Source: a candidate division FCPU426 bacterium
Lineage (GTDB): Bacteria > Oederibacteriota > Muellerivitia > Muellerivitales > Muellerivitaceae
Assembly: GCA_963830915.1 (NCBI GenBank)
Contig: CAWHOE010000042.1
Coordinates: 15,186-79,185, forward strand
Reading direction: 5' to 3'
DNA length: 64,000 nt
Positions 9,126 to 51,052 of this stretch are shown here, piece after piece (within the stretch, counting starts at the first letter, position 1; the number at the start of each line of letters is the position of its first letter). Position numbers and translations under genes: made by a program. The notes under the pieces are model-generated. The model saw only the letters and a list, made by a program, of their open reading frames with translations. It searched no databases and had not been told where the DNA came from.

Positions 9126-9143
9126 AAAGAAGGAGGGCTCAAT

Positions 9144-11224: not shown

Positions 11225-11269
11225 GCCGGTTTTGGCATTGGGCGTTCATTACTTTTAAGGAGAAGTTAA

Positions 11270-12544: not shown

Positions 12545-12554
12545 GGGAAGGCCT

Positions 12555-13226
12555 TTGGAAAAACACACTCCATACTTCAAGGTTTTGGAAACCATTCAAA
12601 AAAGCCGGGATTGCGGGTTGTGTGTTCTGGAAAAGGGAGCGGTTCATTCCTATTTTGAGGCATTCCTTTACGAGAATGTGAATGACCATGGTGCCCGCGA
12701 AGCCTTGCGGGCTTCCAGGGGTTGGTGCCCGTTTCATGCACACCACTTGATTGGATTCCACGACACCCTTGCACTTTCCATCCTCTTCAAAGAACAGGCG
12801 CTCCTTGCCGGGTATTTTCTTGAGAAACAGATGGAGAAAACACACTTCTTTTCAGAATGGGTCAGCCATGCAAAGTGTCCTGCGTGTATCCAAACCATAC
12901 AGATACGACAGCATTACCTTGCTATCTTGGTGAAGGGATTAATAGAGGAAGAGGAAATGCGTTCGGCTTTTTTTGGGAATTTTCATGTCTGCCTCAATCA
13001 TTTTATGTTGGTAGTGGACGCGCTGTCGGACGATGCCTTCAAGAGGCAATTGGTGGACCGGATGTGGCAACGCCTAGCCGATTTGGCTGGACGACTGGAA
13101 CAATATTGCCAGGACTGCCAGATAAACGCGGCGGGTGAAACTTTCGATTCACCCCACCGCTATGCTTGGAAGGAAGCTGTTGAGACAGTTGCCGGGTTGA
13201 AAGACGTTTTCGAGTCGCCGTTGTAA
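12555..13226 (+). CDS. Cys-rich hypothetical protein (CGLC, WCPFH, CPAC, CLNH, CQDC motifs; metal-binding candidate)
   Basis: ORF immediately after eno, same strand; paired CxxC motifs. Confidence 0.45.
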   Translation: MEKHTPYFKVLETIQKSRDCGLCVLEKGAVHSYFEAFLYENVNDHGAREALRASRGWCPFHAHHLIGFHDTLALSILFKEQALLAGYFLEKQMEKTHFFSEWVSHAKCPACIQTIQIRQHYLAILVKGLIEEEEMRSAFFGNFHVCLNHFMLVVDALSDDAFKRQLVDRMWQRLADLAGRLEQYCQDCQINAAGETFDSPHRYAWKEAVETVAGLKDVFESPL

Positions 13227-13402
13227 TAAGACCCGTTATCGTTTTTGGTTCCCAGAACCCCATAAGTTTTTTCGGGAGATCATCAAAGGAAAAGAAAAAG
13301 TGAGGTGGGGGTGTTACTTCCTATGCCCCTAGGGAAAGTTGCTTTTGAATCTATCCTCAATCCTGGTAAAATGCCAAACAGCAAGGGACATTAGGAGGCA
13401 GT

Positions 13403-14473
13403 ATGAGCAAGCCTAATGTTCACGGACTTCCCCAACATCTTCGGAAAGATAGCGGGGGATATTTCCTGGATTTTTTTATCCAGGAGGAAGGGGTTAGTAA
13501 ACGTAAAAGAGTGCGGTTGGGACAGATTCCTTTGCCTCAGGCAAAGAAGGTCTTGGCTCAACACATGCAAGAAATCGTTGAAAACAGTTATTTGGCCCAA
13601 GAAAGGCCGAAGATCACTTTCAACGAAGCCGCTGATTCCTTTATGGCTTATTCGGTGTCCAGGAAGAAGAGTTTTCATAGGGACAAGTATTACGTGGCAA
13701 ACCTTAAGTCTTTTTTTGGTGACAAGCTTTTGGAGAGCCTGAACCTTGACCTTGCTGAAAAGTATTTAACTTGGAGAAGGAAAACCGGAAAACCCAAAGG
13801 GGAGGAAATGAAGGCGGCAACGCTCAACCGGGATATTGCCTGCTTAAAGACGATTATTAATAGGGCGAAGTTAAACAGGCAGATCGACAGGAATCCAATC
13901 GAGGGGATCAGGTTGTTTAAGGAAATCCCCAGGGATAGGACCCTAACCCCGGAGGAGTTCAAACGGCTTTTGGAATGCTGTCCTTCCCACCTGAAATCAA
14001 TGGTCGAGTTGGCTTATTACACGGCCATGAGGAAAGGTGAAATCCTAGGGATGAAATGGGATCAGGTAGATTTCCAAAAAGGGGTTATTTTTCTTGAGGC
14101 GGAGGATACGAAGACTCAGGAAAAGAGGGAAATACCGATTGATGAGAAATTGAAGGAAATCATCAAAAAGATTCCCAAGACCATAGGAAGCCCGTTTGTT
14201 TTTACCTATAAAGGGAAAAGGCTAACGGCTTGCAAGACCGGGTTCAAAAACGCTTGTCAAAAGGCTGGATTGGGAAATTTCCATTTTCACGACCTTCGCC
14301 ATTGCGCAATCACGAATATGCGCAAAGCGGGGGTGCCGGATTCGGTCATAATGAGCGTCAGCGGACACAAAACCAACGCGGTTTTCAGGCGATATGACAA
14401 GGTGGATAGGGAAGACCGAAAATTGGCGTTGGAGCGGGTCCGGGAGTTCAATGACACCAAATTCGGGACCTGA
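13403..14473 (+). CDS. int: Tyrosine site-specific integrase, copy 2 (about 89% identical to copy 1)
   Basis: Same motifs as 4250-5320; homology begins about 30 nt upstream of ATG (ggtaaaatRccaaacRgcaagggacattaggaggcagtATG). Confidence 0.9.
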   Translation: MSKPNVHGLPQHLRKDSGGYFLDFFIQEEGVSKRKRVRLGQIPLPQAKKVLAQHMQEIVENSYLAQERPKITFNEAADSFMAYSVSRKKSFHRDKYYVANLKSFFGDKLLESLNLDLAEKYLTWRRKTGKPKGEEMKAATLNRDIACLKTIINRAKLNRQIDRNPIEGIRLFKEIPRDRTLTPEEFKRLLECCPSHLKSMVELAYYTAMRKGEILGMKWDQVDFQKGVIFLEAEDTKTQEKREIPIDEKLKEIIKKIPKTIGSPFVFTYKGKRLTACKTGFKNACQKAGLGNFHFHDLRHCAITNMRKAGVPDSVIMSVSGHKTNAVFRRYDKVDREDRKLALERVREFNDTKFGT

Positions 14474-14654
14474 ATGACACGGGAATGACAAACGCCCTTT
14501 TCGGGGCGGGAAAGGAGAAGGAAAAAAGTTCGTTTTTCGCTTTAGCTGTAAGGGTTTTAGAAGCTTTAAGAAAACAAAATCAAGCAACCCATTGCGACTC
14601 TCAAAATCTATCGACCTCACGGTCATGTCGGTTCAAGTCCGACCTCGGGCACCA
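14474..14654 (+). mobile_element. Second copy of int-downstream segment ending in the same tRNA 3' fragment (att core 14625-14654)
   Basis: ATGTCGGTTCAAGTCCGACCTCGGGCACCA identical to 5472-5501; flanks diverge immediately after CACCA. Confidence 0.6.
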
Positions 14655-14684
14655 AATTTCTCCAATTTAAAATATATTATTGAA

Positions 14685-14920
14685 AATTTGGTTGTGCTTG
14701 GACGTAGTCCAAGTACACCATTTATCTTCAATTCTGTGTGGTTGTACCCAGACGACCTGCCTGCCGGAACTTTAGTGAAGGCAGGAGTCTGGGTGCACCA
14801 ATTACATTTGGTTGTGCTTGGACGTAGTCCAAGTACACCAATTTTCGTCTTTGATGAGTGGTTGTACTCAGACGACCCGCCTGGCGTAACTTTAGTGAAG
14901 GCAAGAGTCCAAGCGCGCCA
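14685..14920 (+). repeat. Two tandem copies of a 120-bp repeat, each with a GC-rich hairpin (CTTGGA-cgtag-TCCAAG) and a long nested stem-loop (ACCCAGAC-GA-CCTGCC-[14 nt]-GGCAGG-A-GTCTGGGT) ending GCACCA
   Basis: Period 120 nt (ggttgtgcttgg at 14691 and 14811), about 88% identity between units. Confidence 0.7.
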
Positions 14921-14993
14921 CGCTCCACTTGACATCGAAAAGGAAATGGATAATTATGTATATAGAAGTAAATAACTATATACGGAATTATCC

Positions 14994-15617
14994 ATGCCGC
15001 AAACAACGCCCAAACCAAAAACGTATGAGAAAGCCATCCGGGTCTTTCGAGACCGCGGAGGACTACTTTCGTCCACTGAAGCCCTGCGGGAGGGTATCCA
15101 TCCCAGGGACCTTTATGCCATGCGGGACGGTAAACTGCTGAATCAGCTAAGCCGGGGTCTTTACCGGCTTTCCGATATGCCGTCCCTGGAAAACCCAGAC
15201 ATCGTGACGGTGGCCAGACGGGTGCCGGAAGGTGTCCTTTGTCTTATTTCAGCGCTTGCCATTCATGAACTGACCACCCAAATACCCCATGAGATTTATG
15301 TGGCCCTTGAGATGGGTGCCAGGATTCCACGACTGGAGAATCCACCCATTAGGGTATTCCACTTTTCGGGCAAAGCCTTTACGGAGGGGATCGAGCAACG
15401 AAAGGTAGATGGCATAACCTACAGGGTTTATTCCCGAGAGAAAACCCTGGCGGATTGTTTCAAATACCGGAATGTCGTTGGTATGGATACGGCCCTGGAA
15501 GCGCTCCGCAACTATTGGAGGAGTAAGTGGAAGAAAACGGATGAACTCACGAAATTCTCTAAGATCTGCCGTGTGGAGAGGGTGATGGCACCCTACCTGG
15601 AGGCTATCCAAGAATGA
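14994..15617 (+). CDS. abiEi: AbiEi-family antitoxin / transcriptional regulator (type IV TA, abortive infection)
   Basis: N-terminal wHTH (LLSSTEALREGIHPRDLYAMRDGKL) typical of AbiEi; 4-nt overlap with downstream AbiEii. Confidence 0.7.
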   Translation: MPQTTPKPKTYEKAIRVFRDRGGLLSSTEALREGIHPRDLYAMRDGKLLNQLSRGLYRLSDMPSLENPDIVTVARRVPEGVLCLISALAIHELTTQIPHEIYVALEMGARIPRLENPPIRVFHFSGKAFTEGIEQRKVDGITYRVYSREKTLADCFKYRNVVGMDTALEALRNYWRSKWKKTDELTKFSKICRVERVMAPYLEAIQE

Positions 15618-16552
15618 ACAAGCCCATCGTCAATATGGCGGCCTCGGTGCATCAACGGCTTCTCAATAAGGCCCAAAAGTCGAAGCGCCCATTTAATGAG
15701 CTTCTCCACTATTACGCGATGGAGAGGTTCCTGTACCGCCTATCGCGGTCCAAGTACTCGGAAAAATTCATCCTGAAGGGGGCCCTTCTTTTTACCGCCT
15801 GGGAAGTCGCCGAATCCAGGCCGACCATGGACATCGACCTATTGGGGAAAATGAAGAATGAACCGGGGAGCATAGCCCAAGTCGTGAAGGAGATTTGTGG
15901 TCATGATGATGATCATAATGATGGTCTTCGGTTTGACCCTGCAACGGTGAAAGCGACCCGGATCGTTGAAGGGGCCGATTACCATGGAGTAAGGGTCATG
16001 TTCCTAGCCAAGCTAGCTAACGCCAGGATACCCATGCAGATCGACATAGGTTTCGGCGATCCTCATTCAGGGGGTTCGGTTTCTTTAGTGTACCCAACCC
16101 TTTTGGATCATCCAGCACCCCACCTTAAGGGTTATCGGCCAGAAAACGCCATCGCGGAGAAATTCGAGGCTATGTGCAAGCGTGGAATGACCAATACCCG
16201 GATGAAAGATTTTTTCGACGTTTGGCTTTTGGCGCGCCGGTTCGACTTTGACGGGAGCGCCCTTTCAAAAGCGATCATGGAAACCTTTGCGAGTCGCCAT
16301 GTAGAAGTACCTATGGAGCCAACGGCGTTCGGATCAGGCTTTTCCAGGGATAAGGTCAAAAACGTCCAATGGAAAGCTTTCTTGAAAAAGAGTCGGGCGC
16401 CGCATGCCCCGATGAATCTTGCCGTCGCGGTTAAGGTAATAAAAGGATTTCTAGGTCCCATCGCAAAGACTTTGGCCGAGAAAAAGAATTTCGTCGGGAA
16501 GTGGAAGGCACCAGGGCCGTGGAAAATTCCGAGCGGGCGTCAAAAACACTAA
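15614..16552 (+). CDS. abiEii: AbiEii/AbiGii-family nucleotidyltransferase toxin (DUF1814)
   Basis: N-terminus SVHQRLLNKAQKSKRPFNELLHYYAMERFLYRL and central GFGDPH...Y(R)PE block as in DUF1814 NTases. Confidence 0.75.
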   Translation: MNKPIVNMAASVHQRLLNKAQKSKRPFNELLHYYAMERFLYRLSRSKYSEKFILKGALLFTAWEVAESRPTMDIDLLGKMKNEPGSIAQVVKEICGHDDDHNDGLRFDPATVKATRIVEGADYHGVRVMFLAKLANARIPMQIDIGFGDPHSGGSVSLVYPTLLDHPAPHLKGYRPENAIAEKFEAMCKRGMTNTRMKDFFDVWLLARRFDFDGSALSKAIMETFASRHVEVPMEPTAFGSGFSRDKVKNVQWKAFLKKSRAPHAPMNLAVAVKVIKGFLGPIAKTLAEKKNFVGKWKAPGPWKIPSGRQKH

Positions 16553-16554
16553 AA

Positions 16555-16600
16555 CACAAACCCCTTAGTTATTAAGGGGTTTGTGAAATTTGTAGTTTTC
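16555..16600 (+). terminator. Hairpin terminator after AbiEii (also usable on minus strand)
   Basis: CACAAACCCCTTA-gttat-TAAGGGGTTTGTG, 13-bp perfect stem. Confidence 0.45.
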
Positions 16601-16631
16601 GTGTGTTGGGTCAGGCCTGACCCCAGGTTTA

Positions 16632-16691
16632 ACCGCCTGCCGGAACTTAGTGAAGGCAGGAGTCTGGGTGCACCATGAATTGGTTGTGCTT
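16632..16691 (+). repeat. Third (partial) copy of the 120-bp repeat hairpin, CCGCCTGCCGGAACTTAGTGAAGGCAGGAGTCTGGGTGCACCA + TGAATTGGTTGTGCTTT
   Basis: Near-identical to 14757-14812; together with 14685-14920 brackets the AbiE cassette. Confidence 0.7.
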
Positions 16692-16933
16692 TGCCGTTGT
16701 TGATGTTTTCTATTCGTTGTTTTTATCTGTGCCTCTTGATCCTTCGCTTTTCCTCTCCCCAGCCGATCAAATTGATCCTCGATTTATTATTTTGATAGAA
16801 CGAAATTTCAAGCTAGTTCTCCTCCCTCCATTGATGTTCGATCCCTAAACACCGATATTGAATCTAGGAATAATCAGAAGGACATTCCAAAGACTTGAGA
16901 ATTTTCAGGTCGTTTCAACAAAAGGAGCAGCCA

Positions 16934-17533
16934 ATGAAAGCGAAGGTATTCAGTTGCCTGTTAGTTTCAACCCTGCTCATGGGGTTGGCCGGGATATGCA
17001 AGGCGGATGACGATAACCGGGTCATCAGCAAATTGGGCCAAAACAGCCCTCAGGATCATCTCAGGACCGCCTCGTTCTATTTGGTCTTCAAGGACAACAA
17101 ATCGGACAGCCTTCCCGCGGTGCAATCAGGGGACACTGCCCGCTTCTATTCCAAGGTTTGGGACGGCCTCTATCTGCAGGTCACGACCGAGAACGGGGAT
17201 AGGGGAACCGCTGGTTATATGTTCTCATTTTCGACCGATGAGGCGGGTCTCACCCCCGTGGAAACGAATGAACTCAGGGATGTGCCCTCGCTTCGGGAAA
17301 TTACGGCCGGTGATTTCCGCTCCGATGATAATTTCTCGGTCCGTGTATTGAAGCCAGGTCCCGGTACCCCGAAAGACCGCGGCGCTTTCAGAATGGTCAA
17401 ATATGACGGATTTGACGTGGAGATCAGGGTGTTGGAATTCAGTATCGGCGACGCTGGATTGAAGAATAAGCCTTTCTTTAAATCCCTCTCGACCCTAGTG
17501 ACGGTCAGGGAAAAAGCGGAGAGTACCAAGTAA
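16934..17533 (+). CDS. Secreted hypothetical protein (signal peptide)
   Basis: MKAKVFSCLLVSTLLMGLAGICKA signal; AAAGGAG RBS. Confidence 0.5.
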   Translation: MKAKVFSCLLVSTLLMGLAGICKADDDNRVISKLGQNSPQDHLRTASFYLVFKDNKSDSLPAVQSGDTARFYSKVWDGLYLQVTTENGDRGTAGYMFSFSTDEAGLTPVETNELRDVPSLREITAGDFRSDDNFSVRVLKPGPGTPKDRGAFRMVKYDGFDVEIRVLEFSIGDAGLKNKPFFKSLSTLVTVREKAESTK

Positions 17534-18552: not shown

Positions 18553-19776
18553 TCAGTCATCCTGGGATGTGGCCGCGTTGTAAGGGTTGCCTTGGGCGTC
18601 GAACAGGTCGAAAGACCCGTCATTCAATCTCAGGACGATCTCCAAAGGCCTGCCGTTGCTCACGTCCGAATACTGGATGCTTTGTACGCCTGAAGCCAGA
18701 TAGATGGGGCTGAAGGCCGAAGGGTCCGCCGTGTCGTACAAGAAGGCGTCACCTTCTCCTGGCACGATCTTGACTGACCGTTTGCCGTCCGGGCTGTTAT
18801 AGGCCGTCTCGCCGGCCTGCTCCTGGCCGCTCACGACCACTGGATCATCCGCGGAGTTGGCGGGGATGTAATTGTCGTCGTTATAGACGTAAAGCTCGCC
18901 GACGTGGTAAGGGTCCTGCCACCACCAATAATTGTCGTTGTAGAAGCACCAGCGGTTAAAGCCGCTGTCGTACCACCACCAACGGCCGTTGTAATTGCGG
19001 GTCCAAAAGAATTGATCCCCCGCGTACCAGCCGTACCAGTGGTATCCCGAATGGTCGATGTAATGGGAATAAGAAAAGCCGCCATCCGTATGCCAATAAT
19101 AATGGTCCCTTTCGGTCTCCACGCGGTTTTCCTGGTCGATCCTCTGCATGTAGGCCGGACGGTTCACGGCCGACATCTGGTTTCGCACTACCGAGCCGTT
19201 GAATTGGCGGGCGGAAACCATCGTTCCCTTGAACGCCTCCCCTTTGGGGCCGGTCCTGGGAGCCCCGATGATCGAATGGGCCCGGTCGGTAGAAACGATC
19301 TCGGACCGGTCGGTGATGTACTTGGGTTCGGTTTTCACGCCTATCTTGGCCATCTTTTGACGGACATAACCGGGCGTATAGGTGTGATGGCGGACCGCCA
19401 CGGCCTCCCTGGCGACAGGCGCGCGAGCGGTATTTGGTTGGCGCACGGGCTGGGATTGGACCGGCGCCGTTCTTTGAAAGGTATGTTGCGCGACCGGAGC
19501 GGTTCGGGTCCTTTGGACCTGCCCGTAAGAAGGCTGGTAGGCCTGGTGATAGCCTGTGCTGGGGCTGGTACGGTTCATCTGGATCCGCACTGGCTGGCGG
19601 AATTGCGCCTGGGCGCGGACCGTTCCTCTACTTCTGGCGATCGTGCTGTTTCCTCTCACTACTCCGACTTTACTATCCTTCGGATTCCCGCCATTTCCAT
19701 CCCTGTCTCCCGCCGCGTAGACGGCGGCCCCCATGGAAAAAGATAAGATCAAAGTTAATACCGTAATTCGTTTCAT
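18553..19776 (-). CDS. Secreted Trp/Tyr-rich hypothetical protein
   Basis: Signal peptide MKRITVLTLILSFSMGAAVYA; central W/Y-rich repeats (WWWYDSGFNRWCFYNDNYWWWQDPYH). Confidence 0.6.
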   Translation of the reverse strand: MKRITVLTLILSFSMGAAVYAAGDRDGNGGNPKDSKVGVVRGNSTIARSRGTVRAQAQFRQPVRIQMNRTSPSTGYHQAYQPSYGQVQRTRTAPVAQHTFQRTAPVQSQPVRQPNTARAPVAREAVAVRHHTYTPGYVRQKMAKIGVKTEPKYITDRSEIVSTDRAHSIIGAPRTGPKGEAFKGTMVSARQFNGSVVRNQMSAVNRPAYMQRIDQENRVETERDHYYWHTDGGFSYSHYIDHSGYHWYGWYAGDQFFWTRNYNGRWWWYDSGFNRWCFYNDNYWWWQDPYHVGELYVYNDDNYIPANSADDPVVVSGQEQAGETAYNSPDGKRSVKIVPGEGDAFLYDTADPSAFSPIYLASGVQSIQYSDVSNGRPLEIVLRLNDGSFDLFDAQGNPYNAATSQDD

Positions 19777-19814: not shown

Positions 19815-19828
19815 GCAAGAAACGAGCC
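19815..19828 (-). promoter_or_regulatory. sigma-54 -24/-12 promoter (minus strand GGCTCGTTTCTTGC) for 18553-19776
   Basis: GG-N10-GC spacing, followed by TTTAAC as in the other copies; ATG about 40 nt downstream. Confidence 0.5.
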
Positions 19829-19905: not shown

Positions 19906-19984
19906 GGATCGTTCGATCGAATCGAGTATGACCAAAAATAGGCTATCAATATGAGAGCGATCAGTTCGATCATTTAACATGGAA
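19906..19984. promoter_or_regulatory. Upstream paired GATC-A/T-tract sites (candidate enhancer/UAS) in the divergent region 19777-20185
   Basis: GGATCGTTCGATCGAATCGAG and ATCAATATGAG-N4-GATCAGTTCGATC. Confidence 0.4.
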
Positions 19985-20185
19985 TTTAGCCGAATACCCG
20001 CTTTATTTATTAATAAAGAGTAGTATGGACACTGTCGGGCGGTTCATCCCCCCTTCCTCCCAGGCCCCGGTGAATGTCTTCAAGGAATCCGGACCAAATT
20101 TTATCGTTTTGGTTCAACCAACTCGGCCCCCTCTACACTCTCACGTTGATCTACCGGCAGGCTGAACCCTGCCCAGGAGCCGAAC

Positions 20186-21814
20186 ATGCGCGTCGAAGAC
20201 CTCGACCTAAAAGAACTTTTGGAATATGACCCATCTGGAGGCAAGATCCGTTTTGCCGGACAAAGAGCCCTGATATTCGACGCCGTTTCCCAGGGGCTCC
20301 TTCGCAAAGAGTTGGTCGCCACCTATGGCGAAAGGATCGCCCGGGGCATCCTCAGCCGCTACGGCTATATCCACGGCCGTCGCCTGGCCGAGACCCTGAA
20401 GAACAAGTTCAACTGGGATACGGAAGAAGACTGGCAAAAGGCCGGAGCCCGGGTCTTTGCCCTGCAGGGATTATTCATGCAGGAGCCCGGCATGCCCATC
20501 GCCTTCGGCATGGAAGGCGGGACCTGGCGTGTTTCCTATGAGGCCGAACAGCACCTGCTCCATATGGGCCGTTCGGACGCCCCTGTCTGCTGGAACTTGT
20601 GCGGGCTCATCAGCGGCTACTTGAGCTACGTCGCCGAGAAGGAAATGTACGCGCTGGAGGACAAGTGCGTGGGCAAGGGCGATACGGCCTGCCACGTGAT
20701 GATCAAGACCGAGGAGGAGTGGGGCGAGATCGCGGGCGGGGAATTGGCGGTTTTCAAACGCATGGGCATCGATGACGCCTTGAAGGACGTCACCAGCTCG
20801 CTGAAGCGCACGGAAAGCGAGTTGCGGGAAAAGACCAGGAAGTTGACCCTCATCGCCAAGATCGAGGAGGACCCGGCGGAACTCATGGCGCGCAGCCCGG
20901 GGATGCGCAAATTGATGGAACTGGCCAAGACCATCGCCGCCATCGATTCCACGGTCCTGATCACGGGCGAGAGCGGCACCGGCAAGGAAAGGGTGGCGCG
21001 GTTCGTCCACGACCATTCGGCCCACGCGGACGGCCCCTTCATCGCGGTCAATTGCGGGGCCATCACCGAGACATTGCTGGAGAGCGAGCTCTTCGGCCAC
21101 GCCCGCGGGGCCTTCACCGGCGCGACCACGGACCGGGCCGGCCTTTTCGAGGCGGCCAACGGCGGGACCCTGTTGCTCGACGAGGTGGGCGAGATATCCC
21201 TGCCCATGCAGGTGAAGCTCCTCCGGGCCATCCAGGAGCGGGAAGTGCGAAGGGTCGGCGAGAACAAGAACCGGCCGGTCAGGGTGCGCATCGTCAGCGC
21301 CACCAACAAGGACCTGTCGATCGAGGTGGCAGAAAAAAGATTCCGGGACGACCTCTATTACCGCCTGAACGTGGTGGAACTGGCCGTGCCGCCCCTGCGC
21401 CAAAGGCGGGAGGACATCCTTCCCCTCGCGCGCCTGCTCCTGGCCGAATCGGCCCTTCAAATGAAGCGCCCCGTGGACGGGATGACGCCCGCGGCGGCGG
21501 ACAAATTGCTGGAATACTCCTGGCCCGGCAACGTGCGGGAACTGGCGAACGCCATGGAAAGGGCGGTGGCGGTTGCCAAGACCAACCGCGTGGACGTGGA
21601 GGACCTGCCCCCCCAGGTGCTTTTGATGACGCCGATGGCTTCCAACCAGGGGGATCCCCGGGCCATGAAGGATGTGGAGAAGGATTGCATCCTGAACGCC
21701 CTGGAAAAAACCGACGGCAACCGCCGGAAAGCGGCGGAATTGATGGGACTGGGCGTGGCGACCCTATACCGAAAACTCCGGGCCTACAAGTTGTTGGATA
21801 AGGTGCAGGAATGA
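20186..21814 (+). CDS. sigma-54-dependent transcriptional activator (bEBP) with XylR-N/V4R-type sensor domain and C-terminal Fis-type HTH
   Basis: GESGTGKE Walker A, GAFTGA sigma-54 contact loop, ESELFGH, C-terminal HTH (ALEKTDGNRRKAAELMGL). Confidence 0.85.
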   Translation: MRVEDLDLKELLEYDPSGGKIRFAGQRALIFDAVSQGLLRKELVATYGERIARGILSRYGYIHGRRLAETLKNKFNWDTEEDWQKAGARVFALQGLFMQEPGMPIAFGMEGGTWRVSYEAEQHLLHMGRSDAPVCWNLCGLISGYLSYVAEKEMYALEDKCVGKGDTACHVMIKTEEEWGEIAGGELAVFKRMGIDDALKDVTSSLKRTESELREKTRKLTLIAKIEEDPAELMARSPGMRKLMELAKTIAAIDSTVLITGESGTGKERVARFVHDHSAHADGPFIAVNCGAITETLLESELFGHARGAFTGATTDRAGLFEAANGGTLLLDEVGEISLPMQVKLLRAIQEREVRRVGENKNRPVRVRIVSATNKDLSIEVAEKRFRDDLYYRLNVVELAVPPLRQRREDILPLARLLLAESALQMKRPVDGMTPAAADKLLEYSWPGNVRELANAMERAVAVAKTNRVDVEDLPPQVLLMTPMASNQGDPRAMKDVEKDCILNALEKTDGNRRKAAELMGLGVATLYRKLRAYKLLDKVQE

Positions 21815-22823: not shown

Positions 22824-23537
22824 TTAGTTCAGCAGCGCTGGTAGGTTGAAAAGTAATATTTCGGTTGGTTCCTGCGCGGTGAAAGATACCGCTATTTCCA
22901 CCGAGAACCCCGCCCCATCCCCCACGAGAAGTTGAAGGTCGGCCAGGTCGATCTTTCCTTTGACCACGTGCAGCCAGGCGTTCCGGCCGGGTTTCAGCTC
23001 GTGGACCATATGGTTCCCCTTGTGGATGAGCGTGGAATACATTTCCACGTCCTGGCGTATCTTGAGCGAGTCGTCCTTCCCGTCGGGTGAAGCGATGAGT
23101 TTGAGGATGCCCTTGCGGTCGGCCAGGGTGAAGTGCTTGTTTTCGCCGCCCGGTTCGGCCACGCCAGCGCCCGGCGCGAACCCGCTTTGGAATAGGCGGG
23201 CTTCATCGTCAGGGGAGACGTTCAGGGAAAATTGTTTGACGCCGGCCTGGGTTTCAGCCTGATGGAAATCGCCCGCCCGCATCAAGCCGCTCTTGCCCTG
23301 CTGGGGCCTATTGAAGACCATGACCCCTTCATGGAGGTAGGTCACGATCACCATGTCCTTTTGCGTTTGGAGGACGAAGGTCCGGCCCGGCTTTAGGATC
23401 TCCTCATTGAATATCTTGAGCACTCCGAAACCGTTCTGCAGGGGATCGGCTTGGTTTTCATGATCGAAGGTCATCCAGGTCTTTTGATTTTCTGACTCGA
23501 TATGGCGGCGATCCGCCGATCTTCGGATGGTGATCAT
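22824..23537 (-). CDS. Pirin-family cupin protein
   Basis: MITIRRSADR N-terminus and bicupin layout typical of pirin. Confidence 0.75.
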   Translation of the reverse strand: MITIRRSADRRHIESENQKTWMTFDHENQADPLQNGFGVLKIFNEEILKPGRTFVLQTQKDMVIVTYLHEGVMVFNRPQQGKSGLMRAGDFHQAETQAGVKQFSLNVSPDDEARLFQSGFAPGAGVAEPGGENKHFTLADRKGILKLIASPDGKDDSLKIRQDVEMYSTLIHKGNHMVHELKPGRNAWLHVVKGKIDLADLQLLVGDGAGFSVEIAVSFTAQEPTEILLFNLPALLN

Positions 23538-23971
23538 TTCATTTTCCTTAGACGCTTATTTTCCGGACTAACGCTCCCATTGACGATAGAACCGCTTTTA
23601 AACCCACCGACCAACGCCGACTCCACATCCGGAAAAGACCTTAAAAAAGTGTTGAATTCCAATAGCTTGTAGATATCCGTGACGTCCGGACTCATGCCCG
23701 CCAAGACCAGGTCCCCATTCTGCCCGCGGATCTTCTTGATCTCGCTGATGAAGATGCCCCAGCCGGCGCTGCTGATGTATTCCACGTCCGTCAGGTCGAT
23801 CACCAACTTGAACTTTTTATCGTTCAGGACCGACCGAAAGCGTTCCTCGAACTCGGAAGCCGTGACCGTGTCGATCACACCCTGGACTTTTATTAACGTG
23901 ATCCCTTTGTTTCGCTCGTTTTCGGATATGCCGACCGAAATGTGGCTTTTCCCCCCGTCGATATTCATCAC
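23534..23971 (-). CDS. STAS-domain anti-sigma-factor antagonist (SpoIIAA-like)
   Basis: VIDLTDVEYISSAGWGIFISEI, conserved phospho-Ser region of STAS proteins. Confidence 0.7.
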   Translation of the reverse strand: MMNIDGGKSHISVGISENERNKGITLIKVQGVIDTVTASEFEERFRSVLNDKKFKLVIDLTDVEYISSAGWGIFISEIKKIRGQNGDLVLAGMSPDVTDIYKLLEFNTFLRSFPDVESALVGGFKSGSIVNGSVSPENKRLRKMK

Positions 23972-24020
23972 TTTCGATGTCCCAACCGCGCGTTTTCACG
24001 AGAAGCTTTAAGAAAAAGAA

Positions 24021-24034
24021 GCAAGAAACAAGCC
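24021..24034 (-). promoter_or_regulatory. sigma-54 promoter (minus strand GGCTTGTTTCTTGC) for STAS gene
   Basis: GG-N10-GC with TTGC; about 50 nt upstream of ATG 23971. Confidence 0.5.
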
Positions 24035-24095
24035 GGTTCTTATTGGAAATTAGCAACGAATCAGGCTGGTCTTTGATCGGATTTCATCAATGAAA

Positions 24096-24130
24096 ATCAA
24101 AACGAGAATTGAGGGCGATCAATTTGATCG
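24096..24130. promoter_or_regulatory. Candidate UAS: ATCAAAACGAG-N10-GATCAATTTGATCG shared by divergent STAS and OMP promoters
   Basis: Same paired site recurs at about 10 other promoters in the window. Confidence 0.5.
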
Positions 24131-24205
24131 TTCGCGGTCTATAGAAGAACGCGCCGCGGAACGGAAACCGATTTTTATCCTGACCAGCGGAGGGTTTCTG
24201 GGGGG

Positions 24206-24219
24206 GTATGGAACTTGCT
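24206..24219 (+). promoter_or_regulatory. Degenerate sigma-54-like promoter (GGGTATGGAACTTGC, then TTAACACC) for OMP gene
   Basis: Homologous to the CTTGCTTTAACACC core, 1-nt deletion; GG-N10-GC retained. Confidence 0.35.
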
Positions 24220-24257
24220 TAACACCAATGGTCAAATGTTTTCTTGAGCAAAAATAA

Positions 24258-24836
24258 ATGAATGAAAGAGTGATCATGAAAAGGTTTTCTTTAGCGCTGG
24301 GTTGTTCTTTGCTTTTAACGTTGGGAAGCGGCTTCGCTTATGCCGATGAGTCCGTCTCGCCGGTAGGGCCCACGGTGCGTTTGGGCGTGGAGGGAGGTTT
24401 TAACCTGGCCAACTTGAACGGCGCGAACGTGAATGACGCGGTCGGTTCCCGATTAGGGTTCGTGGGGGGCGCTTTCCTGGGTCTGCCCTTGGGAACGAGC
24501 CTGACGCTCCAGCCCGAGATCCTCTATTCCCAAAAAGGCGGGAAGTACAACGGTAATCCCTATCAACTGGATTATTGGGAGATCCCCATTTTGTTGGACG
24601 TGAACCTGGTGGGGCCTTTGGGCCTGCTGCTGGGCCCTTCCTTCGATTTCAACGCGGCGAGTAACGGTGTGGCCAATATCAACAATTCGGACGTAGGGCT
24701 GGTCGTGGGCGGTCAAGTGAATCTCAGCCGTTTCCTGGTCAGCGGTCGTTATGAAGTGGGCCTGACGAACGTGACCAACAATCAAAGCGTCCAGAATGGG
24801 ACCTTCACCTTCATGGTCGGCCTTTCGTTCATTTAA
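24258..24836 (+). CDS. Outer-membrane beta-barrel protein (OmpW/OmpA-like small barrel)
   Basis: Signal peptide, alternating amphipathic strands, C-terminal FMVGLSFI aromatic terminus. Confidence 0.7.
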   Translation: MNERVIMKRFSLALGCSLLLTLGSGFAYADESVSPVGPTVRLGVEGGFNLANLNGANVNDAVGSRLGFVGGAFLGLPLGTSLTLQPEILYSQKGGKYNGNPYQLDYWEIPILLDVNLVGPLGLLLGPSFDFNAASNGVANINNSDVGLVVGGQVNLSRFLVSGRYEVGLTNVTNNQSVQNGTFTFMVGLSFI

Positions 24837-25050: not shown

Positions 25051-25100
25051 TTTTATGTTTCAGTGGTGAATAGGTTTTTTGTGAGGGGAAAGGGGCGGTG

Positions 25101-25709
25101 ATGTCCTACAAAGGCCAAAGTTACAAGAGCCTGATCGGAATGCCGGGATTCAGCGATGAATTACTGGATATCCACTTGAAGCTTTACGAGGGTTACGTCG
25201 CCCATTTCAGTTCCATGATCGATTCCCTGAACAAATCAACCAGGGATCCGGGAATGGTTGAGGAGATCGAACGGGAATTTTCCTGGGAGTTCAACGGTGT
25301 CCGGCTCCACGAGGCTTATTTCGGGAACGTGACGAAGCATTTCAATGTCCTGAACCCAGCCTCGGACCTGGCGTTACAGATCGTCAAGGATTTTGGGTCC
25401 GTGGAAGCCTGGGGGGATGATTTCAAGCGGGTGTGCCTCACCCCGGGGGCAGGCTGGGCGGTCCTGGCCTGGAACCCGGAAGAGAAGAGAATGGTCGATC
25501 TGTGGATCGAGGGGCACGAGGTGGGGCCCCTTTTCTACTGTGTTTCCATCCTGGTCAATGATTGTTTCGACCACGCCTATAGGACCGATTATGGGGACGA
25601 CCGGTCGGACTATACTGACGCTTTCCTCAATGTCATCGACTGGAAGGAAATCCAAAAACGATTCCAAACCGTTATCCAATTGTCGAGAGCTTTTGAGTAT
25701 TCCTTATGA
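25101..25709 (+). CDS. Fe/Mn superoxide dismutase family protein (divergent N-terminal motif)
   Basis: C-terminal DCFDHAYRTDYGDDRSDYTDAFLNVIDWKEIQKRF matches the DvWEHAYY...W-V-NW SOD signature; N-term HLKLYEGY in place of HHxKHH. Confidence 0.6.
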   Translation: MSYKGQSYKSLIGMPGFSDELLDIHLKLYEGYVAHFSSMIDSLNKSTRDPGMVEEIEREFSWEFNGVRLHEAYFGNVTKHFNVLNPASDLALQIVKDFGSVEAWGDDFKRVCLTPGAGWAVLAWNPEEKRMVDLWIEGHEVGPLFYCVSILVNDCFDHAYRTDYGDDRSDYTDAFLNVIDWKEIQKRFQTVIQLSRAFEYSL

Positions 25710-27727: not shown

Positions 27728-27904
27728 TTATCTCGTTCCGCTTCGTATGTATTTTTCAGCTTCGAGCCAATCGGTCAATTCATCTCCCGCCTGTTCGATC
27801 CTTCCCCGATTCAAATAACTGTAATAAGCGGCTTCCTCGATCTTCTGGGTGTTATCCACGCTCTTTGAGAGCGGGATGGTTTTCTCTGTTTTCTTATTGA
27901 ACAT
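27728..27904 (-). CDS. DUF2934 small protein (paralog 1)
   Basis: IEEAAYYSYLNRGRIEQAGDELTDWLEAEKYI matches DUF2934 core (AY..WE.RG.P.G.D..DW..AE); start chosen at MFNKKTEK downstream of the sigma-54 site. Confidence 0.65.
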   Translation of the reverse strand: MFNKKTEKTIPLSKSVDNTQKIEEAAYYSYLNRGRIEQAGDELTDWLEAEKYIRSGTR

Positions 27905-27972: not shown

Positions 27973-27986
27973 GCAAGAAACGAGCC
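27973..27986 (-). promoter_or_regulatory. sigma-54 promoter (GGCTCGTTTCTTGC) for DUF2934 gene
   Basis: GG-N10-GC; about 57 nt upstream of ATG 27904. Confidence 0.5.
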
Positions 27987-28036: not shown

Positions 28037-28070
28037 GATCAAAACGAGAGGCAAATGTCTTTATTGATCG
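28037..28070. promoter_or_regulatory. Candidate UAS GATCAAAACGAG-N12-TTATTGATCG shared by divergent promoters
   Basis: Motif family as at 24096, 31343, 39674, 50944. Confidence 0.45.
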
Positions 28071-28110
28071 CATCGATGAAATAAATAGTCATGACAGCGG
28101 GAAAACCCGC

Positions 28111-28124
28111 GGCACGTTCCTTGC
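28111..28124 (+). promoter_or_regulatory. sigma-54 promoter GGCACGTTCCTTGC (+TTTAACACCCTCC) for DUF3494 gene
   Basis: Perfect match to TGGCACG-N4-TTGC consensus; 27-nt block identical to 39803-39830. Confidence 0.6.
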
Positions 28125-28188: not shown

Positions 28189-28986
28189 GTGAAAAAGTTC
28201 ATAGCTCTTTCGATCATGCTGGCACTGTTCCCGGCGGTCTTTATGACGGGATGTACCGGCTCAACGCCGACAGGTTCAAGCAACAATGGGGGCCCGACCG
28301 CAACACCAACGGCCACACCCATTCCGGGCATTTATTTAACGCCCCAAACCACCCCTCAAGCGCAGGTCTCCCTATTGACCGCGGCTAATTACGTGATCCT
28401 GTCCTACACGGGGATCACCAATAGCGGGCCCAGCACCACCTGCGGGGGTTATGGGGTCTATCCGGATGGATTGACCTCGGTAACGGGTTCTCCCGCGATC
28501 GTGGAGAATTGCGGCGGGGCCATTGATGTGGGCGATGCCACCGCGGATCAGGCCAAAAAAGACCTGGGAACGGCATATACCAACATCGGGAACCGGGTAG
28601 GCGGCGCGCCCATCCCGTCAGGCGCCGATATCGGGGGAACGACCCTGTATCCCGGTCTGTACATTGACAACGGGGACCTGAACATATCCTCCTCGGATTT
28701 GACCCTGGACGCCCAAGGCGACTCGACCGCCATCTTTATCTTCAAGGTTTCGGGCGTACTGACCGTCGCGACCAGCCGAAAGGTCACCCTGGCCAATAAC
28801 GCGAACGCCGCCAATGTCTATTGGTGGTTGACCAAGAACTGTACCTTGAACGCTTCCGTCCAAATGAAGGGGACCATCATGGCTTATACCTCCGTCACCT
28901 TCGGCAACAGTACCGTGCTGACCGGGCGGGCCCTGGCCGAAAACGGGGATGTAACTTTGCTGACCAATACCATTACCCATCCTTAA
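28189..28986 (+). CDS. DUF3494 / ice-binding-like family lipoprotein (beta-solenoid)
   Basis: Lipobox AVFMTGC; ILSYTGITNSG, IDVGDATADQAKKDLGTAY, GTTLYPGLY, NVYWWL, GTIMAYTSVTF, GRALAENGDVTL match the ice-binding-like fold family; GTG start (ATG at 28138 lies before the promoter-proximal segment). Confidence 0.65.
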   Translation: MKKFIALSIMLALFPAVFMTGCTGSTPTGSSNNGGPTATPTATPIPGIYLTPQTTPQAQVSLLTAANYVILSYTGITNSGPSTTCGGYGVYPDGLTSVTGSPAIVENCGGAIDVGDATADQAKKDLGTAYTNIGNRVGGAPIPSGADIGGTTLYPGLYIDNGDLNISSSDLTLDAQGDSTAIFIFKVSGVLTVATSRKVTLANNANAANVYWWLTKNCTLNASVQMKGTIMAYTSVTFGNSTVLTGRALAENGDVTLLTNTITHP

Positions 28987-30871: not shown

Positions 30872-31051
30872 TTATGGTTCTGTTAGGCTATCCCACACCT
30901 CTTTTTCAGCTTCGGCCCAGTCACACATCTTGTCGCCCGCCTGGGCGTAACGCTCCCGGTTCAAATAACAGTAATAGGCGGCTTGTTCGATCTGTTGGGT
31001 GATCTCAGTCTCGGTCAGCGCGACTTTTTTTTGTTTTGTGTCATCGCTCAT
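30872..31051 (-). CDS. DUF2934 small protein (paralog 2)
   Basis: IEQAAYYCYLNRERYAQAGDKMCDWAEAEKEV; start at MSDDTKQKK. Confidence 0.6.
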   Translation of the reverse strand: MSDDTKQKKVALTETEITQQIEQAAYYCYLNRERYAQAGDKMCDWAEAEKEVWDSLTEP

Positions 31052-31267: not shown

Positions 31268-31281
31268 GCAAGAAACAAGCC
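31268..31281 (-). promoter_or_regulatory. sigma-54 promoter (GGCTTGTTTCTTGCA) upstream of DUF2934 paralog 2
   Basis: GG-N10-GC with TTGCA; long (about 200 nt) leader containing the MITE-like element. Confidence 0.4.
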
Positions 31282-31342: not shown

Positions 31343-31376
31343 ATCAAAACGAGACCGAAACCGATCATTTTGATCG
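31343..31376. promoter_or_regulatory. Candidate UAS ATCAAAACGAG-N9-GATCATTTTGATCG
   Basis: About 95-125 nt upstream of the sigma-54 core at 31468. Confidence 0.5.
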
Positions 31377-31467: not shown

Positions 31468-31481
31468 GGCACGTTCCTTGC
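31468..31481 (+). promoter_or_regulatory. sigma-54 promoter GGCACGTTCCTTGC for SPFH/PRC-barrel/H+-ATPase operon
   Basis: Perfect -24/-12 consensus; ATG 31536. Confidence 0.6.
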
Positions 31482-31535: not shown

Positions 31536-32465
31536 ATGAGAAACGGAAGTTCTTTTCCGATGTTGGTGTTCTGCGTCATTGTGGCACTCGGCGGCGGTTT
31601 GGCTTATGTAATCTATCTCGGCAATCCATCCAATTTTCCTGTCAGCGTTTTCATCGGGGCACTTACTTTTGCCGCCGCCCTGATAAGCTCGCTCGCGATC
31701 AAGGTCGCGGACCAATGGGAAAGGGTCGTGATCCTGCGTCTGGGCAAGTATCGGTCCCTGGAAGGCCCCGGCCTGTTCTTCATCATCCCCATCATCGACG
31801 ATATCGCCTATTGGATCGACACCCGGGTGATCACCTCCGCCTTCAAGGCCGAGAAGACCCTGACCAAGGACACGGTGCCGGTGGACGTGGACGCGGTGCT
31901 GTTCTGGAAAGTGGTGGATCCCAAGAAAGCGGCCCTGGACGTGGCCGATTACCAGAGCGCCATCCAATGGGCCTCCCAGACGGCCCTGAGGGACGTGATC
32001 GGCAAGACCATGCTCTCCGACATGCTGGAAGGCCGGGAAAAGATCAGCAGCGAGCTCCAAAAGATCATCGATGTGCGCACCGAGCCCTGGGGCATCAACG
32101 TCATCTCGGTGGAGGTGAAGGACGTGCTGATCCCCGCGGCCTTGGAGGACGCCATGTCCATGCAGGCCCAGGCGGAAAGGGAGCGTCAGGCCCGCGTGAT
32201 CCTGGGTGATTCGGAACGCCAGGTGGCGGAGAAGTTCGGGGAAGCGGCCAAGACCTATATCAACAATCCGGTCGCCCTTCATTTGAGGGCCATGAACATG
32301 CTTTACGAGGGGTTGAAGGCCAATTCCACGATCGTCATCGTGCCAAGTTCGGTGGTGGAAACCATGCAGTTGGGAGGGATGGCAGGACTGACGGCCTTGA
32401 CCATGGGTATCGGGCAGGAACAGGCGAACAAAGCGAAGGTTATTGGACCAGGAACCCAAACGTGA
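31536..32465 (+). CDS. SPFH/band-7 (stomatin-like) membrane protein
   Basis: N-terminal TM + SPFH core (QWERVVILRLGKY...TKDTVPVDVDAVLFWKVVDP...) and coiled-coil tail. Confidence 0.8.
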   Translation: MRNGSSFPMLVFCVIVALGGGLAYVIYLGNPSNFPVSVFIGALTFAAALISSLAIKVADQWERVVILRLGKYRSLEGPGLFFIIPIIDDIAYWIDTRVITSAFKAEKTLTKDTVPVDVDAVLFWKVVDPKKAALDVADYQSAIQWASQTALRDVIGKTMLSDMLEGREKISSELQKIIDVRTEPWGINVISVEVKDVLIPAALEDAMSMQAQAERERQARVILGDSERQVAEKFGEAAKTYINNPVALHLRAMNMLYEGLKANSTIVIVPSSVVETMQLGGMAGLTALTMGIGQEQANKAKVIGPGTQT

Positions 32466-38606: not shown

Positions 38607-38646
38607 GTTCTCCCTTTCGAGTCTTATTAACTGAGGGATTAATAAA

Positions 38647-38660
38647 GCAAGAAGCAAGCC
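38647..38660 (-). promoter_or_regulatory. sigma-54 promoter (TGGCTTGCTTCTTGC) for 38310-38606
   Basis: GG-N10-GC, TTGC; about 40 nt upstream of ATG 38606. Confidence 0.5.
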
Positions 38661-38711
38661 ACGGGAACGAAGGGTTTATTCCGATATTTTCGGGCTGTTC
38701 GGGAGGGGATT

Positions 38712-38745
38712 ATCAAAATGAGAGTCCGGAGGGTTGTTTTGATCG
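38712..38745. promoter_or_regulatory. Candidate UAS ATCAAAATGAG-N10-GTTGTTTTGATCG
   Basis: Motif family. Confidence 0.45.
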
Positions 38746-39615: not shown

Positions 39616-39629
39616 GCAAGAAGCGGGCC
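39616..39629 (-). promoter_or_regulatory. sigma-54-like promoter (GGCCCGCTTCTTGC) for PLDc_N gene
   Basis: GG-N10-GC; about 45 nt upstream of ATG 39571. Confidence 0.4.
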
Positions 39630-39673: not shown

Positions 39674-39708
39674 GATCAAAACAAGAGAAGGGAAGATCAT
39701 TTTGATCG
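39674..39708. promoter_or_regulatory. Candidate UAS GATCAAAACAAG-N9-GATCATTTTGATCG
   Basis: Shared by divergent PLDc_N and LysM promoters. Confidence 0.5.
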
Positions 39709-39802: not shown

Positions 39803-39816
39803 GGCACGTTCCTTGC
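39803..39816 (+). promoter_or_regulatory. sigma-54 promoter GGCACGTTCCTTGC (+TTTAACACCCTCCATGG) for LysM gene
   Basis: Identical 27-nt block to 28111-28137. Confidence 0.6.
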
Positions 39817-44851: not shown

Positions 44852-44865
44852 GCAAGAACCAAGCC
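44852..44865 (-). promoter_or_regulatory. sigma-54-like site (TGGCTTGGTTCTTGC) upstream of 44386-44832
   Basis: Good consensus but only about 8 nt between predicted TSS and ATG 44832. Confidence 0.3.
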
Positions 44866-45042
44866 ACGGTGCCAGGTCTATTCAGCCCACTGTCCCTTCC
44901 TTTTTTTGCCCTGGTTCCCCAAAGGAACTCAAATGGGGAATGGGCCTATCGTTTTGATCGGGAAGGGTCGGGGGAAGGTTGGGCGGGAAGGAAAGACCGG
45001 CGGAATAGAGAGGATTACGGTCATTCGCGCCGGATCGAGGAC

Positions 45043-45057
45043 GGCATATTCCTTGCA
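45043..45057 (+). promoter_or_regulatory. sigma-54 promoter GGCATATTCCTTGCA for GlsB-family gene
   Basis: GG-N10-GC with TTGCA; ATG 45129. Confidence 0.5.
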
Positions 45058-50635: not shown

Positions 50636-50649
50636 GCAAGAAATGAGCC
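50636..50649 (-). promoter_or_regulatory. sigma-54 promoter (GGCTCATTTCTTGC+TTTAAT) for ADH
   Basis: GG-N10-GC; about 68 nt upstream of ATG 50556. Confidence 0.5.
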
Positions 50650-50943: not shown

Positions 50944-50977
50944 ATCAAAATGAGGGTCGGAACGATCAATTTGATCG
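50944..50977. promoter_or_regulatory. Candidate UAS ATCAAAATGAG-N9-GATCAATTTGATCG shared by divergent ADH and rhodanese promoters
   Basis: Motif family. Confidence 0.5.
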
Positions 50978-51038: not shown

Positions 51039-51052
51039 GGTACAGAACTTGC
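51039..51052 (+). promoter_or_regulatory. sigma-54-like promoter GGTACAGAACTTGC (+TTTAACCC) for rhodanese gene
   Basis: GG-N10-GC, TTGC. Confidence 0.45.

Follow-up and report, generated by a model that had tools for sequence, protein, structure and literature searches.

In a 64-kb stretch of DNA from an uncultured soil/peat bacterium of the candidate phylum FCPU426 (contig CAWHOE010000042.1 of assembly GCA_963830915.1; hereafter the window, taken at its full length), a stress-protection gene cluster is arranged in back-to-back pairs, and each pair appears, from its sequence, to be turned on from one shared activator site situated between two outward-facing sigma-54 promoters. A first-pass annotation had proposed bidirectional activation from one enhancer for six intergenic regions of the window. 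Comparative evidence now argues for that proposal, namely the outward orientation of the promoter cores around the enhancer, the conservation of a weak dyad within it, and the link between the presence of one core class and a divergent gene. A candidate activator is encoded beside the cluster.

Six divergent intergenic regions share a tripartite sigma-54 module

The six divergent intergenic regions are borne out by the open reading frame (ORF) list, in which the flanking divergent ORFs begin exactly at the positions given in the first-pass annotation (23971/24258, 27904/28189, 31051/31536, 39571/39887, 44832/45129 and 50556/51100). As had also been described, a minus-strand and a plus-strand sigma-54 core face outward in all six regions with one paired site between them, and the paired site that had been named, at 24096-24130, is exactly the central site of region 1. 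All six have the same tripartite layout, consisting of a minus-strand core (L), a two-dyad activator site (the enhancer) and a plus-strand core (R). Beyond these six, two further units in the window possess an L core and a site and have no R core (19815-28/19945-72 and 38647-60/38712-45). The parts are as follows, the enhancer sites being listed without a strand.

19815..19828, minus strand: L core GGCTCGTTTCTTGC, predicted to drive the gene for a 407-aa secreted protein (18553-19776); an L-only unit, divergent from the activator gene
19945..19972: variant activator site ATCAATATGAG-AGCG-ATCAGTTCGATCA, between the L core at 19815 and the activator gene
20186..21814, plus strand: gene for a sigma-54 enhancer-binding protein of 542 aa, XylR_N + V4R + AAA+ (Sigma54_activat, GAFTGA) + HTH_8 (Pfam)
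24021..24034, minus strand: region 1 L core GGCTTGTTTCTTGC, toward a STAS gene (23534-23971) and a pirin gene (22824-23537)
24096..24130: region 1 enhancer, weak dyad ATCAAAACGAG and strong dyad (G)ATCAATTTGATCG
24205..24218, plus strand: region 1 R core GGTATGGAACTTGC, toward an outer-membrane beta-barrel gene (24258-24836) and a superoxide dismutase (SOD) gene (25098-25709)
27973..27986, minus strand: region 2 L core GGCTCGTTTCTTGC, toward a DUF2934 gene (27728-27904)
28038..28072: region 2 enhancer, weak dyad intact, strong dyad present as its right half (TCTTTATTGATCG)
28111..28124, plus strand: region 2 R core GGCACGTTCCTTGC, toward an ice-binding-like lipoprotein gene (28189-28986)
31268..31281, minus strand: region 3 L core GGCTTGTTTCTTGC, toward a DUF2934 gene (30872-31051) via a leader of ~205 nt with a long inverted repeat
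31343..31376: region 3 enhancer, ATCAAAACGAG-N10-ATCATTTTGATCG
31468..31481, plus strand: region 3 R core GGCACGTTCCTTGC, toward an SPFH gene (31536-32465), then PRC-barrel genes and a P-type ATPase
38647..38660, minus strand: core of an L-only unit, GGCTTGCTTCTTGC, toward a small gene (38310-38657)
38712..38745: enhancer of this L-only unit, ATCAAAATGAG-N10-GTTGTTTTGATCG
39616..39629, minus strand: region 4 L core GGCCCGCTTCTTGC, toward a gene for a small PLDc_N membrane protein (39392-39571)
39675..39708: region 4 enhancer, ATCAAAACAAG-N10-ATCATTTTGATCG
39803..39816, plus strand: region 4 R core GGCACGTTCCTTGC, toward a LysM lipoprotein gene (39887-40321), then cupin, AI-2E transporter and DUF4403 genes
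44852..44865, minus strand: region 5 L core GGCTTGGTTCTTGC, toward a gene for a 148-aa membrane protein (44386-44832) and a DUF883 gene (44079-44426)
44928..44960: region 5 enhancer, degenerate weak dyad CTCAAATGGGG and strong dyad ATCGTTTTGATCG
45043..45056, plus strand: region 5 R core GGCATATTCCTTGC, toward a Transgly_assoc (YeaQ-like) gene (45129-45407), then YceI-like and PLD genes
50636..50649, minus strand: region 6 L core GGCTCATTTCTTGC, toward a zinc alcohol dehydrogenase (ADH) gene (49480-50556)
50944..50977: region 6 enhancer, ATCAAAATGAG-N10-ATCAATTTGATCG
51039..51052, plus strand: region 6 R core GGTACAGAACTTGC, toward a rhodanese gene (51100-51462)

Read on the plus strand, the left block is AAGCAAGAAAcaAGCCG, and its minus strand, CGGCTyGTTTCTTGCTT, is a GG-N10-GC sigma-54 core; L-type cores follow the pattern GGCyyrnTTCTTGC. 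R-type cores read GGCACGTTCCTTGCTTTAACAC or GGTAyrGAACTTGCTTTAAC on the plus strand, with the general pattern GGyAyNNwmCTTGCTTTAAC. The GG and GC doublets lie exactly 10 bp apart, in a sequence resembling YTGGCACGrNNNTTGCW, in the R cores GGCACGTTCCTTGC and GGTATGGAACTTGC and, with a poorer match at the -24 element, in the L cores GGCTTGTTTCTTGC; every core points to an ORF that starts 19-250 nt downstream, and these ORFs carry Shine-Dalgarno sequences. The central site consists of a weak dyad, ATCAAAAyGAG (rATCAAAAyGAG), then 9-12 nt, then a strong dyad, GATCAwTTTGATCG. The two 13-bp dyads are 21-22 bp apart, about two helical turns, on the same face of the DNA. As derived from the gaps, their centres lie at about -93/-115 relative to the L core and about -135/-157 relative to the R core, so that each -24/-12 core has two dyad-symmetric sites in the distance range of roughly -80 to -160, as in the enhancer (upstream activating sequence) of an NtrC-family activator.

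When matches in the window were compared with dinucleotide shuffles of it, the L pattern gave eight matches against 0.06 expected, all on the minus strand and intergenic, the R pattern six against 0.04, all on the plus strand and intergenic, and the strong-dyad pattern nine against 0.02, ratios that are inflated because the patterns were written post hoc from instances already seen.

Two other promoter types were tried on the same DNA and rejected. Matches to the sigma-70 consensus, which may differ from the lineage's own, occur in the cluster at or below chance, with nearly none in the six regions on either arm. An extracytoplasmic function (ECF)-type reading (GGAAC ... CGTT) of the GGAAC spacer in the R cores found no matching -10 element by eye.

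Cores point outward from an oriented enhancer across genomes

The module recurs, in the same orientation, in other FCPU426 genomes and in metagenome contigs from soil and peat. A metagenome scan with the enhancer pattern alone returned 26 contigs. Nineteen enhancers in metagenome contigs have full flanks; five are accompanied by both cores, 11 by an R core only, one by an L core only and two by neither. Core orientation was then scored around 40 non-redundant enhancers with a generic GG-N8-TTGC scan, in which the two core classes are not presupposed. Outward cores were present on 36/40 strong-dyad sides and 17/40 weak-dyad sides, with both sides occupied in 16/40 enhancers, and inward cores on none of the strong-dyad sides and a single weak-dyad side. 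This outward bias indicates that the enhancer is oriented and that the cores behave like promoters pointing away from it.

The cores on the two sides belong to different classes. Weak-dyad-side cores read GGC-y-y-r-n-TTC-TTGC and lie 45-68 bp from the dyad. Strong-dyad-side cores have an A at the fourth base after GG (GGyAy). Most of them are 100-109 bp away from the dyad, and smaller groups occur at distances of 50-61 and 72-94 bp. The difference at this fourth base (A versus T/C) is pronounced (Fisher P = 5e-9), and three apparent exceptions are probably degenerate enhancers whose orientation was wrongly called. The gaps between dyads and cores are helically phased at 10.5 bp (Rayleigh P about 3e-4 for L and 1e-3 for R). 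Sequence anatomy, conservation, orientation rules and gene content are direct observations on the DNA.

Within the arms themselves, semi-conserved blocks were seen between strong dyad and R core (window 24131-24204; contigs L013, L015, L018, L029 and L037), namely GAAAAATTT about 27 bp past the dyad, a GAAAnCGnTGTTTC dyad, and a G-rich block, GGCyGGCGGAGGATTyGG, about 40 bp before the core, which resembles a TGGCA-N6-TTGG pseudo-core. These R-arm blocks do not match the consensus of integration host factor (IHF). Looping by an E. coli-type IHF was considered and rejected, the WATCARNNNNTTR consensus not being enriched (one match in 39 R arms, none in 16 L arms). The short L arm is rich in A-tracts, with a broad periodicity peak at 10.5-11 bp tested against a weak shuffle null, and we keep intrinsic bending of this arm by phased A-tracts as a suggestion only.

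Both promoters are predicted to use the same enhancer

An enhancer of two dyads could in principle be divided, with the weak dyad serving L and the strong dyad serving R. We therefore scored the weak dyad in modules that had been ascertained solely via their R core and strong dyad. In modules without an L core, it matched at 9, 11, 11, 9, 11, 9, 10, 5 and 11 of 11 positions, and in modules with an L core at 8, 10, 11, 11, 8, 11, 9, 10, 11, 11, 10 and 7, against a background mean of 4.8. Since the weak dyad is conserved to the same degree whether or not an L core is present, the R promoter presumably uses both dyads, and the module contains one shared enhancer; an arrangement of one site per promoter was rejected on account of this conservation in R-only modules. 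No extra activator site was found in modules with two promoters.

The presence of an L core follows gene arrangement. It coincides with a divergent left neighbour in 15/16 cases and is absent with a co-directional neighbour (15 cases; Fisher P = 7e-4), and the curated set also contains nine divergent left neighbours without an L core. An alternative solution is seen in contig L026, where two back-to-back enhancers each have their own R core. The pairing of left and right genes varies between genomes, rhodanese being found with ADH, STAS, Crp or nothing, and the motif geometry stays constant.

A candidate activator of the XylR/DmpR type is encoded beside the modules

The product of the gene at 20186-21814 is the only GAFTGA protein encoded in the window. 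A receiver-GGDEF gene follows it, and then the region 1 module. The protein combines XylR_N, V4R, AAA+ and HTH_8 domains, the architecture of XylR and DmpR; its residues 7-474 align with the DmpR/CapR structure 6iy8, and it shares 35% identity with XylR from plasmid pWW0 over its full length. It scores 323.7 bits with the curated NCBIfam MobR model NF041906, far below the cutoff of 999, and the genes it would control are of stress and envelope types, not of aromatic or hydrocarbon catabolism. Because it falls short of the curated model and would not control aromatic catabolism, we do not count it as a member of the XylR/DmpR subfamily and describe it as working like one.

A genome scan with the activator protein recovered orthologues at 71-87% identity, most of them in metagenome-assembled genomes (MAGs) labelled candidate division FCPU426 or "uncultured bacterium" and two in genomes labelled otherwise. 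Their loci are again flanked by the same modules, the co-location being kept in at least eight loci, and a palindrome resembling the strong dyad lies just upstream of the activator gene in the orthologue loci. In metagenome contig L023, the end of an activator orthologue adjoins a module. The xylS-xylR intergenic region of pWW0 contains TTAATCAATTGGTTAATC, with the same ATCAA/TTGAT half-sites as the modules. We take this stretch to be a XylR site and TTGATCAATTGATCAA to be the XylR consensus. Because pWW0 shares the half-sites and the activator gene is conserved beside the modules, we assign the central site to the XylR-type activator family. On these comparisons, the 20186-21814 protein is the candidate activator of all modules.

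Some FCPU426 MAGs encode a second activator that is 77-79% identical to the first (loci L003, L004 and L010, in the same MAGs as L007 and others). The L003 paralogue, the sole one of the three to be recovered, keeps the same helix-turn-helix (HTH) recognition helix, VATLYRKLKAY. No full module was found at paralogue loci L003, L004 and L010.

The activator gene is also preceded by a strongly conserved element of ~70-90 nt (window 20053-20140, plus strand), located between a sigma-70-like -10 box and the start codon and reading ...GGCCCCGGyGAATGTC..GGAATCCGrAyCAA-(variable loop)-TTGGTTCAACCmACTCGGCC. Homologues lie in L001 (5724-5828), L002 (1939-2033), L005 (9865-9955), L006 (9821-9911), L007 (5195-5285), L008 (9865-9956) and L011 (9764-9856), and the element is absent at the paralogue loci L003 and L004. 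RNAalifold on eight sequences predicts two stems, GGCC/GGCC on the outside and GAACCAAG/yTTGGTTC with the variable loop, two pairs showing compensatory changes; the single-sequence fold is no better than those of shuffles. The element had no Rfam match. On the evidence of eight sequences, a new cis-regulatory leader RNA and a DNA operator are both conceivable.

A model for bidirectional activation and its alternatives

We consider it likely, on the evidence of the DNA, that each region is a compact bidirectional sigma-54 control module that works by the following mechanism. Dimers of the neighbouring XylR/DmpR-type activator (20186-21814) would occupy the strong and weak dyads, its XylR_N/V4R domains would sense a signal, and the dimers would assemble into an active AAA+ ring. 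Sigma-54 RNA polymerase would be held in closed complexes at both outward-facing cores, at the T-rich L core on a "short arm" ~62 bp past the weak dyad and at the consensus-like R core on a "long arm" ~75-109 bp past the strong dyad. DNA looping would carry the ring to either polymerase, where ATP hydrolysis would open the promoter, and one enhancer would in this manner co-induce two divergent operons. Each activator ring is believed to act on no more than a single sigma-54 at any moment, and for this reason we propose that the arms are probably fired alternately, with arm length and core class setting their relative output. The identity of the binding protein, the activity of both arms and the sharing of the enhancer between them are the parts of this model that we infer.

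Several observations, in addition to the post hoc patterns behind the chance estimates, weigh against this model. At the -24 element the L cores read GGCTT and not the consensus GGCAC, and they could be weak or silent, and since 11/19 fully covered enhancers serve an R core alone, bidirectionality is an option of the design and not its rule. Individual modules are imperfect: the strong dyad of region 2 is reduced to its right half, TCTTTATTGATCG, at 28060-72, the weak dyad of region 5 is degenerate (CTCAAATGGGG, 44928-38), and the L core of region 6 lies 294 bp from the intact enhancer (50944-77) compared to about 62 bp elsewhere. No ORF with an RpoN box was found in a search that covered the window and the recovered loci. 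Finally, a paralogous activator with the same recognition helix exists in some genomes and may also be the protein that binds.

This last point underlies an alternative in which sigma-54 does serve both arms, but another activator encoded elsewhere in the genome, or the paralogue, occupies the central site, or two RpoN paralogues each read one of the core classes, such that the adjacent gene is not the sole regulator. Its starting points are the 77-79% identical paralogue with its unchanged recognition helix, the systematic difference between the core classes (A versus T/C at the fourth base after GG, P = 5e-9) and a window promoter at 48331 whose upstream site is a variant one. Against it, activator gene and modules stay together in at least eight loci, the activator gene has a strong-dyad-like site immediately in front of it, no other GAFTGA protein is encoded in the 64-kb window, and the half-sites resemble the XylR target region of pWW0. 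We regard this alternative as unlikely.

If instead only the R arm worked as a promoter, the L cores would be non-productive or regulatory (decoys, roadblocks or sites of polymerase holding) and the minus-strand genes would use other promoters. The predominance of R-only modules (11/19), the off-consensus -24 element of the L cores and the several divergent left genes that lack an L core would fit such a scheme, and E. coli has many non-productive sigma-54 sites (PMC4591121). Yet the L cores always face a gene with a ribosome-binding site and a start 19-250 nt downstream, their presence correlates with a divergent neighbour, and their distance from the weak dyad is fixed across genomes and gene contexts. 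L-only units also exist (38647 and 19815 in the window, and L014), and sigma-70-like alternatives are not enriched. We therefore hold an R-only mode of action to be quite improbable.

The reading that we favour least, and deem highly improbable, is that the design recurs through duplication or through the spread of a mobile promoter cassette and not as a selected architecture: regions 2 and 4 do contain an identical run of 38 nt, 22-23 nt surrounding the R core are common to regions 2, 3 and 4, all window modules are oriented alike and small repeat families are present in the cluster, but BLAST finds no similarity between the intergenic regions outside the motif blocks, arm lengths and sequences differ, and gene partners are reshuffled between genomes with motif positions and orientation rules kept. 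In the underlying comparison of the eight intergenic regions with one another, similarity was limited to motif blocks apart from 22-38 nt around the R core of regions 2, 3 and 4; it follows that none of the regions is a recent copy of another, and recent duplication or a mobile cassette was rejected.

Enhancer-like sites, repeats and other features of the window

In region 6, the stretch of ~290 bp between L core and enhancer (50650-50943) is full of hairpins made of C5/G5 runs (50739-50761 and 50864-50884) and contains degenerate enhancer-like pieces at 50717-29 and 50852-62. A once compact module may have received an insertion here. The DNA to the right of the L-only unit at 38647-38745 appears, from the ORF list, to be the end of a minus-strand gene.

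Enhancer-like sites with no sigma-54 core nearby were found at 16764-16796 and 47546-47590 (both minus strand) and at 8616-8628 and 8868-8880 (plus strand), those at 8.6-8.9 kb falling within ORFs. The site at 47546-47590 overlaps the best sigma-70-like promoter match of the cluster (47584-47613), an overlap that could reflect repression by the activator. Activators with sites overlapping a sigma-70 promoter are known, PexR being an example (PMC12754779).

An extra consensus-like sigma-54 core, GGGCACGATAGTTGC, lies within 48207-48345 (plus strand), upstream of a gene of 269 aa with no Pfam match (48411-49220), and has a variant upstream pair, GATCATTTTGATAG ... GATCATTTCGCC. This promoter may be a diverged module or a target of the paralogous activator.

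A small repeat family built on CCAAGGCACCAAG occurs at 31082-31115/31206-31239, 52789-52941 and 45596-45617. The repeats form long inverted repeats (34 nt, 88% complementary), one of them within the ~205-nt leader of the region 3 L arm, and the family looks similar to repetitive extragenic palindromic (REP) elements or miniature inverted-repeat transposable elements (MITEs).

The left quarter of the window (1-17000) differs from the remainder in GC content (45-52% versus 50-61% elsewhere) and has its likely genes on the plus strand, including those for a GGDEF/TPR protein, a dynamin-like GTPase and enolase. It contains no modules, and the stress cluster accordingly starts at ~18.5 kb. A fluoride riboswitch (RF01734, 49 bits; 6928-6993, plus strand) is located directly upstream of a gene of the Na+/H+-exchanger family (6970-8316), in the block that also holds the enolase gene. 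It was the only known RNA family that Rfam models found in the window, with none at the activator leader.

The modules may form a regulon of stress-response type

The gene content of the modules is consistent from genome to genome, and the two core classes go with different families. Across genomes, the families predicted to be driven by L cores include pirin (four times), receiver domains (four times), STAS, Crp-like, DUF2934, SOD and BON proteins, and those predicted to be driven by R cores include ice-binding-like proteins (nine times), rhodanese (six times), Transgly_assoc (four times), DUF5670, outer membrane proteins (OMP), SPFH, LysM and PRC. Such gene content is of the kind found in the RpoS, SigB and EcfG general stress regulons. 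Taken together, the modules would make up a sigma-54-driven regulon whose genes recall those of a general stress or dormancy response.

It is known that orientation does not prevent a bacterial enhancer from acting. A more far-reaching and clearly speculative proposal, which we put forward as a possibility rather than an expectation, is as follows. FCPU426 bacteria might run their general stress or dormancy response via sigma-54 and one or two paralogous XylR-like activators, not via an alternative factor of the sigma-70 family, and might do so with hard-wired asymmetric bidirectional enhancers, in which one ring is split between the short-arm, T-rich class of promoters (mostly cytoplasmic and regulatory genes) and the long-arm, consensus-like class (mostly envelope and secreted genes). 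If this were true, the two arms would have a fixed output ratio or fire in a mutually exclusive manner, and the modules would offer a natural system for studying how a bacterial enhancer chooses between two promoters.

Should both arms be active, the modules would in addition provide natural variants for the sharing of one AAA+ ring between two polymerases; their arms span 45-109 bp, their dyads can be strong, weak or half-lost, and they come in one-arm as well as two-arm forms. They would also supply compact bidirectional parts for synthetic biology and a first regulatory map for an uncultured soil/peat phylum, and would suggest that sigma-54 fills the role that RpoS, SigB or EcfG has elsewhere.

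Comparison with known systems

The closest parallels are single loci. ZraR governs the divergent zraP/zraSR sigma-54 promoters from a common intergenic region in E. coli and Salmonella, with an envelope-stress output (PMC4987338), and thus shares with the FCPU426 modules one enhancer-binding protein, two divergent sigma-54 promoters and an output in stress protection. It differs in being confined to one locus and in its regulator, a two-component response regulator, whereas the FCPU426 system has a one-component XylR_N/V4R protein as its candidate activator and many promoter pairs. Unlike ZraR, the FCPU426 modules also have an oriented enhancer composed of a weak and a strong dyad, and two core classes at different distances from it.

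In Desulfovibrio vulgaris, the type III secretion system (DVUA0100) is encoded in divergent sigma-54 operons with a common activator region (PMC4641369), and the orp1/orp2 operons, under OrpR and IHF, have palindromic activator sites between their promoters and show synchronised expression (PMC3897727). Both are again single loci, whereas the FCPU426 design is repeated at least six times in 31 kb and recurs across genomes. Moreover, orp needs IHF sites in both arms, whereas the FCPU426 arms lack enrichment of the E. coli-type IHF consensus.

The XylR/DmpR systems (Pu/Ps/Po, TOL plasmid pWW0) resemble the FCPU426 modules in the domain architecture of the activator and in the ATCAA/TTGAT half-sites. 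The xylR/xylS arrangement adds a further likeness, an activator gene that is divergent from a sigma-54 target and has sites near its own promoter. They differ in that the FCPU426 targets are of stress type, the half-site spacing is off by 1 bp and bidirectional use would be routine.

In gene content, the likeness is to the RpoS, SigB and EcfG regulons, with DUF883 (ElaB/YqjD-like), Transgly_assoc (YeaQ/YmgE-like), BON, YceI, SOD, PRC-barrel, STAS and pirin genes. Those regulons rely on -35/-10 promoters and on sigma-factor competition, whereas the FCPU426 promoters have sigma-54-type -24/-12 elements and would be controlled by an ATP-dependent activator from a remote enhancer.

Among the literature matches listed, none describes gene regulation in FCPU426, and we found no precedent in the literature for a regulon whose recurrent unit is a bidirectional module with an oriented two-dyad enhancer and two classes of promoter at two distances. 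The first-pass annotation had called the design unusual and repeated. Because isolated divergent sigma-54 pairs that share an activator region have been documented, we limit "unusual" to the repetition and the asymmetry, for which the description holds, and do not extend it to the underlying principle. A divergent sigma-54 pair under one activator is thus already known; to our knowledge, the regulon-wide, asymmetric, two-class design and its host are new.

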